Source: a virus
Taxonomy: Duplodnaviria; Heunggongvirae; Uroviricota; Caudoviricetes
IMG/VR virus record: IMGVR_UViG_2874951433_000008
Length of the DNA stretch: 40,663 bases
Reading direction: 5' to 3' (one strand)
The notes under the pieces were generated by a model. That model saw only the letters and a list, made by a program, of their open reading frames with translations, searched no databases and was not told where the DNA came from. Positions within the stretch are counted from its first letter, which is position 1. Every line of letters starts with the position of its first letter. The position numbers were made by a program, and so were the translations under genes. Positions 34,886 to 37,746 of this stretch are shown here, in pieces.

Positions 34886-36517
34886 ATAAACCGTGCTGTG
34901 TAACTGCTGTGGATCAAATCTGACCACAACTTTTTTCACTCCGGCATTCATTAATGCCATGTTGTAATAAACGTTTTTCGCGCCTTTAAGGGAGCCGCCA
35001 ACTTTAAGCGTAAACTCGCCTTTGCGTGAAACGTTCACCGCCTCGGCAGGCAGTAACAGCATCCGTTTTTGTTCTTCGGTTGGCTTACGCACAATCGTTC
35101 TGGCGTATTCACGCTCGAAAACATCATCAAACGAGAGTTTGCCCCCGCACATTTCTGTTTCACGGCCTGTTCTGGCATTGAACATCGCCACACCTTCAGC
35201 AAAGGTTTTCAGAAACAGCTCTGCATCAACAGCGTGGTCGCCATAGTTATCAGGTTTTGCCTGCGGATTTGGCCCCGTATATGCGCCAGCCAGTGCCGGA
35301 TGCTTATCAACGTATTCCTCAAGCCCACCAACACCGAAAGCACGTTCAACAGGTTTTGCCTGGCCCCAGCCTTTACCGGCAACAACGCTTGTCCAGTGCA
35401 TTTTCGCACCCATCAGTAAAAACAGTCCTTTTGGATCGTCCTCTTTTACCTTAAAGCGGTAGCGATTGGGCGCGCCTCCCGTCAGCCATTTATTCGCAGC
35501 ACCACGGGTGTTATCAATGGTGATGTGAAAATCCTCCGGGATACTGTAGCGAGTCACAACATCCATGAACGAGAGGCGAATTGAATCAATGTTCTCGCTC
35601 ACATCGCAGCGCCAGCCCAGAATTTTTCGGGTTTTCACATCCTGCCAGAACCATGTTTTCGGACGGATCACATCACCGTTAAACCAGCGTACAAAGACGT
35701 TATGCAGATAACCGTCGCCGTTGATCCACTGCATGGCGTCCAGGTGTTCCACAGTTCGCTGCTGTGCCGGTATCAGATGCATCAGTGCATGTTCACCTTC
35801 ACGACAGGCAACAACCATTGCCTCGTCCAGTTGCTGAATCCGGCGAAAGGCCGTGGCACGGGAGGGAATACTCCAGCCATGCTCGCGGGCTGCCAGTTCC
35901 AGACGCTCATAACATTTGCGGAAGGCGGGTTTTTCCGGTCGCAGATAATCTGCAATCAGAAACTGCCAGGCATCCTCGTCAAATTCACTTTTGTGAACAT
36001 TGCGACGGGATGCTCCACGTCCATCAACAAGTGCAGCCGCCCAGTCAGGCTTCGCAAACTTCTGTACCTGGTAATACTTGTCCCGCAAAGTGGATGCGCT
36101 GACCTGGTAATGCCCTGCAACGGTCGCAAAAGCCGTTTTCGTTGAAATCCCCTGGTTCAGCATTTCGTCTGTGGCCTGAATTGAGGGCAACCATTTTTCA
36201 GCCAGGCTGCGCTGGGAATCGCTGGCTTTATCCCATTTGCTCCATAGTGCCTCACGATCATAATCATGAGCTTCCAGCGTGGGGCGGGCGATTTCAAAAC
36301 ATCCCTGACTGGTTTTAAATTTTCCTTGTTGGAGCAAAACTTCAGCTCGAGCAATGTTAGGAAGAGAAGATATATGGTATTCGTAAGCAACCCCTCTAAT
36401 TCCTTCTCTTCTTCTCTTGAGCCATCCTTCTCTCTGAGCTCTTTTGTGAACCCCCATTAATGAACCAGGTAAACCAGATAAATCCATGCATTCAATTGCT
36501 GATATCCACTCTCTCAT
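34886..36517 (-). pseudogene. Mu-type transposase A, C-terminally truncated by IS600 (about 544 of ~660 residues retained)
   Basis: Long match to my recollection of MuA (…[23 protein letters not shown]…[36 protein letters not shown]…[14 protein letters not shown]), with a divergent N-terminal DNA-binding domain; it ends in the IS600 terminus. Confidence 0.85.
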
Positions 36518-36746
36518 TGTGATCCCTTAGATATCTACTAGGCCAAATTTCCTCAGGTTTCATGTTTAAGGCGTCAGCAATAATGCGTTCACCTTTAGGC
36601 CATGGCCTGACTAATGCATTTGCAAGCGTCCCGGTTGAATAACCTGAACGTCTGGACAATTTTGCCAGAGGGGTTCCTGTTTTTTTGAGGGCCGCAATCA
36701 CGTCGGCCCGATGCCAATCGTTACTCATCTTTCGCACACCAACCAT
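36492..36746 (-). CDS. ner: Ner-like DNA-binding regulator
   Basis: …[13 protein letters not shown]…LANAL…WPKGE…IIA…AL…[10 protein letters not shown] matches the Ner/Nlp family; start may be the internal ATG at 36728. Confidence 0.75.
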
Positions 36747-36899
36747 ATTGCGTATGATAAAGGGTTACCAAAACAAATAATTCGTCTTGATTATCTGTTT
36801 TATACATTACCAAATAAACCAAACCGGTTTATATCAGTTGATGTGGTTTATTTTGTAATCCATTGATTTTTATATAGATAAATCTGGTAAACTTAGTTT

Positions 36900-37409
36900 A
36901 TGAAAAGCGCAAATGAGATAAACCAGTGGATGACACCCAAACAAATTACTGAACTGGATGGAATGCCTGGGACAATACAGGGGGTGCATAAACGAGCAAA
37001 GAAAGAAGGATGGCCGAAGCGTTCACAAGAAGGGCGTCGCGGGCCTGGGGTTGAATATATCCCGGCAATACCGGCTATGCAAAAAATTGCTATCGAAGAA
37101 ATGAATGCTGATACATTGAAAATGTTCTCCCTGTTAATCAATAAACTAGGAGAAAATGAAGTCCGAGAGATAGAGCTAAACATGGCTAAATATGGGCTTT
37201 CTGGATTAATGCAAGAACGCCCCTCCATCTCCGTTGACACCCTATTGGCAACGCTGGGTATTGATCGCCAAACACTACAAACAGCTTTGGCGCTGCATAA
37301 ATTACCTCCAGAAACTCGCCAAGAGATTTTGTCAATGTATGGTGTTCATAAACAGGAAGAGCCTGTAGCTCCTTTGTTGGAACCACAAGATGCGAAAAAA
37401 GCCGTATAA
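36900..37409 (+). CDS. Mu/D108-type repressor c
   Basis: 169-aa ORF whose N-terminus (…TELDGMPGTIQGVHKRAKKEGWPKR…) parallels the N-terminal DNA-binding domain of the adjacent A protein; divergent from ner. Confidence 0.7.
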   Translation: MKSANEINQWMTPKQITELDGMPGTIQGVHKRAKKEGWPKRSQEGRRGPGVEYIPAIPAMQKIAIEEMNADTLKMFSLLINKLGENEVREIELNMAKYGLSGLMQERPSISVDTLLATLGIDRQTLQTALALHKLPPETRQEILSMYGVHKQEEPVAPLLEPQDAKKAV

Positions 37410-37559
37410 CAACCATGAGCCAGCTAAAACATACTTCACCTCACATAATCACACATGTAACATACCTAAACGGCATGAGCTGATTTGTGATATGAGTCAT
37501 TTGGTGACAGCCTGGTTGTTATCGGTTTTGAACGTTTTTTGAAGCTATGATTGAAATGA

Positions 37560-37746
37560 TTTATAGTGTTTTTGTTTTTCGTTTTTTCAATGAAACAAAA
37601 GCAATTTTTTACTATCTTTCGCGTTTCATTGGTTAACGCCTAAAATTTGTACTACAGGCTTGCAAGCCCCACCAAATCTAATCCCATCAGATCCCGAATA
37701 ATCCAATGTTCTCCCGGTTTTTTCGTACTTCAAGTGAATCAATACA
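37560..37746 (-). repeat. Mu-type left end (attL) with transposase-binding sites
   Basis: Direct match to the Mu left-end sequence as I remember it; the element terminus …TGAATCAATACA abuts dpiA coding sequence. Confidence 0.75.

Follow-up and report, generated by a model that had tools for sequence, protein, structure and literature searches.

The 2.86-kb segment 34886-37746 of a 40,663-nucleotide stretch of DNA from the IMG/VR virus record IMGVR_UViG_2874951433_000008 (the whole stretch is hereafter called the window) is the left part of a Mu-type transposable prophage. Taken together with its history, it is read here with high confidence as what is left, no longer mobile, of the left end of a Mu-type (Muvirus) prophage in Shigella flexneri, and it is ordinary prophage wreckage apart from its repressor, which is of a type carried by no isolated phage. 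On the plus strand the order is the insertion sequence IS600, a truncated transposase gene (A'), ner, a regulatory region of 171 bp, c, attL, a 3' fragment of dpiA, dcuC (on the minus strand) and pagP; the features that the initial annotation describes all lie at the coordinates given there. The central claim of that annotation, a Mu-family left end (attL, c, ner and a truncated A) that sits in dpiA and is terminated by IS600, was verified element by element. The features are as follows.

33649-34885, minus strand: IS600 copy 4, 1237 bp; truncates A and joins the remnant to the head module of a neighbouring ipaH prophage
34883-36517, minus strand: truncated transposase A', 544 amino acids; domains I-alpha (heterologous), I-beta and I-gamma, the DDE core and part of II-beta
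36338-37300, no strand: heterologous immunity cassette, running from A codons 1 to ~60 through ner and the operators to c codon ~134
36492-36728, minus strand: ner, 78 amino acids, intact; HTH_35 (PF13693), 100.5 bits
36729-36899, no strand: divergent regulatory region, 171 bp; putative operators, internal activation sequence, early and repressor promoters
36900-37409, plus strand: repressor gene c, 169 amino acids, intact; HTH_Tnp_Mu_1 (PF02316), 46.9 bits
37410-37746, minus strand (read inward): attL, a Mu-type left end with the terminal TG at 37746 and sites L1-L3
37720-37736 (L1), 37616-37632 (L2) and 37576-37592 (L3): transposase-binding sites, consensus matches
37747-38088, plus strand: dpiA 3' fragment, codons 114-226; Pfam HTH_64 (DpiA-like)

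Assignment to the Mu family and to S. flexneri

In every structural respect applicable to a fragment the remnant belongs to the Mu family. It has the TG end with L1-L3, a MuA-family DDE transposase, divergent c and ner genes beside the left end, and a 5-bp target duplication, one copy of which lies in the window while both junctions are found on the single contigs L027 and L028 described below. Only completeness is wanting: A is without domain III, and the window contains no B, late genes or right end.

The window is S. flexneri chromosome, serotype 5. Over positions 34122-38200 it differs by 1 base from CP000266.1 (serotype 5 strain 8401), and identical junctions are present at 12 S. flexneri chromosomal loci, CP000266.1 among them. 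The exact 169-residue c protein is found on many S. flexneri assemblies (6687 index blocks), with the same neighbourhood in 10 of the 10 loci that were read. When genome contigs were scanned with c, the only chromosomes to come up were two of S. flexneri type, and relatives were reached through protein matches. An Rfam scan of 33000-40663 returned no family. No description of this specific remnant was found in the literature, and its genes are already publicly annotated under generic names; the public record of the exact 544-residue A' is ABF02946.1/Q0T6N0, named 'putative phage transposase', of the serotype 5 strains 8401 and M90T.

An identical IS600/A'/attL/dpiA structure was also seen in CP178302.1 (L016), labelled Escherichia coli ECMA0423, which is probably a strain of the S. 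flexneri lineage. Its flank, from the position corresponding to 37842 of the window onward, carries many substitutions and single-base insertions or deletions; these point to low assembly quality or recombination, and the locus is uninformative on selection.

The left end and the truncated transposase

The attL terminus CAATACA (reverse complement TGTATTG...) falls exactly at 37746. The initial annotation had described the last ~190 bp as matching a Mu-type end nearly base for base, and this held: the final 190 bp are identical to Mu bp 1-191 at 183 of 191 positions (96 %), the alignment having one gap of a single base, within an A run, and 37301-37746 is 91.7 % identical to Mu 1-447 (blastn). 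With the consensus core RAARYRCGAAAR taken from the annotation of the D108 record, the cores of L1 and L2 are exact and that of L3 has one mismatch (T->A). The two matches to RAARYRCGAAAR in the 40.6-kb window, against 0.44 expected, are both at the Mu L1/L2 positions.

The DDE core, on whose presence the initial annotation had made its reading depend, is retained in A'. Residues D268, D335 and E391 align to D269, D336 and E392 of Mu, and Pfam gave HTH_Tnp_Mu_1 (PF02316), HTH_Tnp_Mu_2 (PF09039), a full-length DDE_2 (PF02914, E 1e-134) and a partial Mu-transpos_C. At the nucleotide level 34886-36337 is 97.7 % identical to Mu A (blastn), and 97-98 % identical across Mu, D108 and SfMu. The protein spans residues 1-469 of the 529-residue transpososome construct PDB 4FCY, the chain being matched by A' residues 76-544.

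Mu-derived DNA stops at 34886, and the A' stop codon TGA (34883-34885) is formed by the first three bases of IS600. Truncation of A by IS600 was thus rightly called in the initial annotation, which placed the cut too early in describing it as mid-A: it falls after codon 544 of ~662 (82 %), so that the catalytic core is kept. The final residue of A' aligns to Mu Y545, and the 118 residues lost are the end of domain II-beta and the whole of domain III. In MuA, domain III-alpha is required for tetramer assembly and cleavage, and III-beta for interaction with MuB and ClpX. With a single end, no B and a transposase that lacks domain III, the remnant is unable to transpose, replicate or be packaged.

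Insertion in dpiA and history of the element

To the right of attL, 37747-40663 is collinear with E. coli K-12 from dpiA nucleotide 340 through dcuC and pagP, at 98.7 % identity; dpiA is interrupted after codon 113, and the CTGGG at 37747-37751 is one copy of the Mu target duplication. The initial annotation had proposed looking for the missing right end and for the 5-bp duplication in dpiA. The junction predicted for the other side, GAACGGCTGGG followed directly by TGAAGCGGCG (that is, dpiA ending in CTGGG and then TGAAGCGGCG), was matched by an exact-match scan of IMG/VR in the three contigs L026, L027 and L028, whose flanks are 99.75 % identical to the window, compared with 98.9 % for K-12. 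The attL/dpiA junction is also on L027 and L028, so that both junctions, each with CTGGG, are on one contig; the target duplication is confirmed by this.

When L027 and L028 are turned to the orientation of the window, the order is dpiB, the 5' part of dpiA ending in CTGGG, attR, intact mom and com, the first 55 codons of gin, the G segment (S, U, U', S'), a full-length IS600, A', ner, c, attL, CTGGG and the 3' part of dpiA. The IS600/A' junction is exactly as in the window, and the element, with both Mu ends, is roughly 8.3 kb long (8265 bp in L027).

The simplest history, which has direct support, runs in three steps. A Mu-like phage first inserted itself into dpiA, between codon 113 and codon 114, and duplicated CTGGG. 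An IS600-associated deletion then took out everything between A codon 545 and the invertible G segment and left the element of ~8.3 kb with both ends that is seen in L027 and L028. Finally, recombination at that IS600 joined A' to the head genes of the ipaH prophage and separated the stump from attR. The fusion to the ipaH prophage is thus most likely a later IS600-IS600 rearrangement. Two features speak for this last step: the 27-bp deletion and three of the substitutions of IS600 copy 4 are also in copy 3, and the IS600 of L027 and L028 is full length. The arrangement of the window is found at all 12 complete S. flexneri loci examined.

In a simple insertion an element of the IS3 family is expected to produce a 3-bp direct target duplication. 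Copy 4 has none in the window, where its flanks are TAT and ATT, and the IS600 of L027 and L028 has none either (flanks AAC and TAT); the missing duplication is consistent with IS-associated deletion or recombination. Relative to copy 1, which is 99.6-99.8 % identical to IS600 annotated on S. flexneri virulence plasmids, copy 4 has a 27-bp in-frame deletion in orfB and six substitutions, including a G->A in the terminal inverted repeat. Its Pfam matches are HTH_Tnp_1 and rve.

A shorter history, in which the rest of the prophage was lost by one IS600-mediated deletion into the ipaH prophage and no attR half is left in this strain, is possible though rather doubtful. It would account for the absence of a target duplication at copy 4 and for a comparison with K-12 in which nothing from rna to dpiA nucleotide 339 was found in the window, with 37 kb covered on the left side. 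Against it, L026 keeps dpiB, the dpiA 5' part, attR, mom, com and the G segment, so that attR halves persist in at least some related genomes, and in the study of SfMu Mu-hybridising bands were common to most S. flexneri strains (PMC4406740). The three-step history with a later rearrangement is the preferred one.

The related contigs have features of their own. L027 (1-10110) and L028 (1-12301) each carry a natural 'mini-Mu' of ~8.3 kb in dpiA, which could in principle be mobilised by a helper phage. L028 has an extra insertion of ~765 bp in attL, near Mu bp 230-235, and in L027 a 1-nucleotide insertion frameshifts the start of A'. In L026, which has dpiB, the dpiA 5' part, attR, mom and com, the G segment ends in an IS600 whose junction is 262 bp from that of L027 and L028, and the tail-fibre gene S has an extra insertion of ~770 bp.

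The immunity cassette

The segment 36338-37300 has no match in phage records. In blastn it shows no nucleotide similarity to D108 or SfMu, and to Mu only over one segment of 192 nucleotides in ner, at 68 %. Identities to the corresponding proteins of Mu, D108, SfMu and the prophage of E. coli UMNF18 were as follows.

c: Mu 41 %, D108 34 %, SfMu 38 %, UMNF18 prophage 85 %
ner: Mu 63 %, D108 55 %, SfMu 55 %, UMNF18 prophage 99 %
A residues 1-60: Mu 43 %, D108 43 %, SfMu 42 %, UMNF18 prophage 90 %
A residues 244-544: 99 % to each of Mu, D108, SfMu and the UMNF18 prophage

By contrast, D108 and SfMu are 90 % identical to each other in c and 99 % in ner, which makes SfMu itself a D108-type phage, in agreement with the SfMu paper (PMC4406740).

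On these sequence comparisons the S. flexneri cassette is a separate immunity type, neither Mu nor D108/SfMu. In c, likeness to Mu is confined to the last ~36 codons. The initial annotation had called the immunity type D108-like; it was right as to the extent of the swap, since the same cassette (N-terminus of c, operators, ner and ~60 codons of A) has been exchanged, and wrong as to the type, c being only 34 % identical to that of D108. An element of the D108 (or Mu) immunity group, rendering its host immune to D108/SfMu- or Mu-type phages, would fit with a swapped segment that has the extent of the classical Mu/D108 non-homology (c, ner and the 5' end of A). It is hardly credible in view of the identities listed above for c, ner and A 1-60, set beside the 90 and 99 % shared by D108 and SfMu, and of an operator region with no nucleotide match to Mu, D108 or SfMu. 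The D108 and Mu types were accordingly ruled out on the c, ner and A identity matrices, and a separate type is retained.

The type is rare. Among 50,697 phage records the best tblastn match for c was 36 % identical. A Mu-type A core is present in 83 of 5426 complete E. coli genomes, and this cassette in one of the 5426 (UMNF18). Protein searches returned Salmonella enterica prophages with c at 85-87 % and one metagenomic relative at 60 %, all of them full-length Mu-like prophages.

Mu-like prophages with further c types were found in E. coli SE11 (L024) and E. coli SA53-3 (L025). The SE11 c protein (202 amino acids) is 33-45 % identical to the other c types compared in its N-terminal region, while the tail of ~35 residues, which ends in KKAV, is the same in all types. 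With SE11 and SA53-3 sampled, prophages of the E. coli group have at least five c types, and all those sampled share the C-terminal tail ...EILSxYG.HEQE...PQDVKKAV. Several c types with a shared C-terminal tail imply that cassette exchange at this place is common in the Mu family; the S. flexneri type is therefore one more member and no new principle.

The c and ner genes and the operator region

The c and ner genes had been described as apparently intact, and this was upheld. In complete prophages c has 169-171 amino acids, and a 78-residue ner with a 26-nucleotide ner/A overlap is annotated in L001 (UMNF18) and L019-L021; because the lengths in the window agree with these, and with identities of 85-87 % (c) and 99 % (ner), both genes were judged intact. 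The c protein matches the DNA-binding domain of the Mu repressor (PDB 1G4D) with E 2e-10. Its N-terminal DNA-binding domain is that of the distinct immunity type, and its C-terminal ~36 amino acids (...PQDAKKAV) are Mu-like. The 3' end of ner overlaps the start of A by 26 nucleotides (36492-36517) in a different frame, an overlap kept in the UMNF18 and Salmonella prophages. When A(1-76) was scored against c proteins, the values were 138 with its own c and 141 with the c of Mu; the 'matched pair' signal, clear for D108 and Mu, is absent here.

The operator alignment took in UMNF18, three Salmonella prophages, L022, L027 and L028. Candidate operator IR1 (36774-36797) reads CAAATAATT-N6-GATTATCTG. 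In the complete prophages it is a perfect CAGATAATC-N6-GATTATCTG with conserved arms and a variable spacer, whereas all S. flexneri copies have the left arm CAAATAATT. Candidate operator IR2 (36814-36832) is ATAAAC-N7-GTTTAT; its arms are kept in nine sequences, and its spacer differs even between S. flexneri strains. In the lineage of the window 9 bp are also deleted between 36808 and 36809, and position 36768 has a T->C; neither change is present in L027, L028 or the complete prophages. These changes could be either decay or tuning.

From their sequence the two inverted repeats may act as operators. By analogy with Mu and D108, c would be expressed leftward (towards attL) from its own promoter, bind operators in 36729-36899 and repress the rightward ner-A' operon; c is thus probably made from its own promoter, with ner-A' kept shut off. 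The immunity conferred by c could extend only to Mu-like phages of the same rare type, not to SfMu, D108 or Mu.

Several points weigh against the reading of the locus as a whole. L027 and L028 cross a repeat of 1.26 kb; a mis-join there is improbable, given the agreement of two independent assemblies, each of which also departs from the window within the remnant. The window has no attR, and a search for the reciprocal G-segment/IS600 junction in other contexts matched only L027 and L028. The operator region of the window lineage has the 9-bp deletion and extra substitutions, and its regulation may be broken already. A sigma-70 promoter and terminator scan of 36450-37760 stayed at background, so that the early and repressor promoters were not located.

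The functional part of the reading has a competitor that stands at even chances, namely that the remnant is wholly inert, with c and ner intact only through the youth of the lineage, unexpressed or non-functional and under no selection. The S. flexneri loci differ by only 1-14 substitutions in 4 kb, so that intact open reading frames of 510 and 237 nucleotides are expected by chance; the operator region has its lineage-specific deletion and several substitutions, every S. flexneri copy has a change in one arm of the conserved palindrome, and no promoter stood out in the scan. The c protein speaks on the other side: it is identical in all loci examined, the earlier-branching L027 and L028 included, though most loci were chosen by their exact c sequence. 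Inert wreckage departs from the reading preferred here only in this functional part, and nothing directly contradicts it.

A further proposal, to which little probability is given, is that S. flexneri keeps, and perhaps tunes, a working c-ner module of an uncharacterised Mu immunity group, as protection against homo-immune transposable phages or as a domesticated regulator. It is hinted at because S. flexneri strains that are otherwise almost identical differ mainly in the 171-bp operator region (the 9-bp deletion, T->C at 36768 and the hypervariable ATAAAC/GTTTAT spacer) while the c protein stays identical.

The neighbouring ipaH prophage and its IS elements

Left of IS600 copy 4 lies a scrambled prophage with an ipaH-type gene (1-1587), a recE fragment, a cI-like repressor, Rac-like replication and antitermination genes, an IS66-family transposase, two copies of an IS3-family element, and genes for a terminase, a portal, a Mu_F-like head protein and a major capsid protein. 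The initial annotation had called its head genes a lambdoid module. This applies to the early genes, which are Rac/lambdoid-like; the head genes are not the portal, protease, decoration and capsid genes of a lambda-type module. Pfam gave Phage_portal_3, Phage_Mu_F, Pa193_gp24, Phage_cement and PF09950 (major capsid), and the DNA of the module is 95 % identical to phages of the vB_EcoM-689R2 type and 82 % identical to SEN34.

That this head module and the Mu left end form one composite Mu-like prophage, merely interrupted by IS600, is so improbable that it can be set aside, despite the Phage_Mu_F domain of one head protein. The head genes are on the opposite strand and convergent with A, and their nearest matches are non-Mu phages. 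A blastn search of the window with the whole Mu genome found no right end and no other Mu DNA except a 98-bp match in a tail-fibre-chaperone gene, the region left of the module contains the Rac/lambdoid early genes and ipaH, and in L027 and L028 the same IS600/A' junction leads into the G segment of Mu itself. The module was rejected as part of the same Mu-like phage on the strand, the phage matches and the L027/L028 arrangement, which leaves the fusion at IS600 of two separate prophages.

The ipaH-type gene, with leucine-rich repeats (LRR) and a NEL E3-ligase domain, adjoins a tail-fibre-assembly gene (DUF4376) that contains the 98-bp match, 81 % identical to the Mu U region; this end is the cargo end of the neighbouring prophage wreck. 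The IS3-family element of 1.33 kb has full copies at 7590-8921 and 26550-27881 and a 282-bp fragment at 22377-22658, with open reading frames of 136 and 301 amino acids, and is IS2-like by size alone. The IS66-family transposase is at 20744-22345, inside the ipaH prophage.

The window has four copies of IS600.

2386-3649: copy 1
4576-5839: copy 2
17792-19028: copy 3
33649-34885: copy 4

Copies 3 and 4 share the 27-bp orfB deletion (263 instead of 272 amino acids) and three substitutions, and the G->A in the inverted repeat is in copy 4 only. At copies 1, 2 and 4, the ends of which were mapped exactly, the 3 bp on the two sides never match as a duplication would, suggesting that IS600 copies have recombined repeatedly in the region. 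Copies 1 and 2 form a perfect inverted pair of 1264 bp each (2386-5839) around 926 bp with the recE (Exonuc_VIII) fragment; TAT stands both to the right of copy 1 and to the left of copy 2, the pattern that an inversion between the two would produce.

Comparison with known Mu-like elements

The locus is a base-by-base record of prophage decay in a major pathogen, from the insertion in dpiA through an IS600-linked deletion to an IS600-mediated rearrangement, and it accounts for the pseudogene state, in S. flexneri, of dpiA, the response regulator of the citrate-fermentation system. It also indicates that the immunity types of the Mu family exceed the textbook pair of Mu and D108, with one type fixed in S. 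flexneri that has no isolated representative. The significance is modest. Earlier Southern blots had already pointed to Mu-related remnants in S. flexneri (PMC4406740).

The remnant resembles Mu (AF083977) in its left end (96 % over 190 bp, with L1-L3), the DDE triad, A residues 61-544 (94-99 % identical), the C-terminal tail of the repressor and the gene order, in which attL is followed by c (leftward) and then by ner and A (rightward). The sister loci are also like Mu in their 5-bp target duplication and in attR, mom and com, which are 96 % identical. Unlike Mu, the remnant has a c protein of 41 %, a ner protein of 63 % and an A domain I-alpha of 43 % identity and an operator region unrelated at the nucleotide level; its ner overlaps A by 26 nucleotides where Mu has a 1-nucleotide gap and D108 also a short gap; and it lacks A residues 546-663, with no B, late genes or right end in the window.

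D108 and SfMu are relatives of Mu in which the same left-end cassette has been swapped and the rest is ~95 % identical; the cassette of the remnant is a different one. SfMu shows that phages of this cassette-swapped kind infect S. flexneri (PMC4406740). The prophages of UMNF18 (L001) and Salmonella enterica (L018-L020) are of the same type as the remnant, with c at 85-87 %, ner at 99 % and A 1-60 at 90 %, and share its ner/A overlap and operator layout; that of UMNF18 is 91.8 % identical in one piece over the whole 2.86 kb. They differ from the remnant in being full-length (A of 662 amino acids, B, kil, gam and mor), in their chromosomal sites, and in having a perfect operator palindrome and no 9-bp deletion.

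The state seen in L027 and L028 is a natural mini-Mu, comparable to laboratory mini-Mu elements in having both ends, c, ner and an internal deletion. The state in the window is typical of IS-mediated prophage decay, as described for S. flexneri genomes, and its single end excludes even mobilisation by a helper phage.

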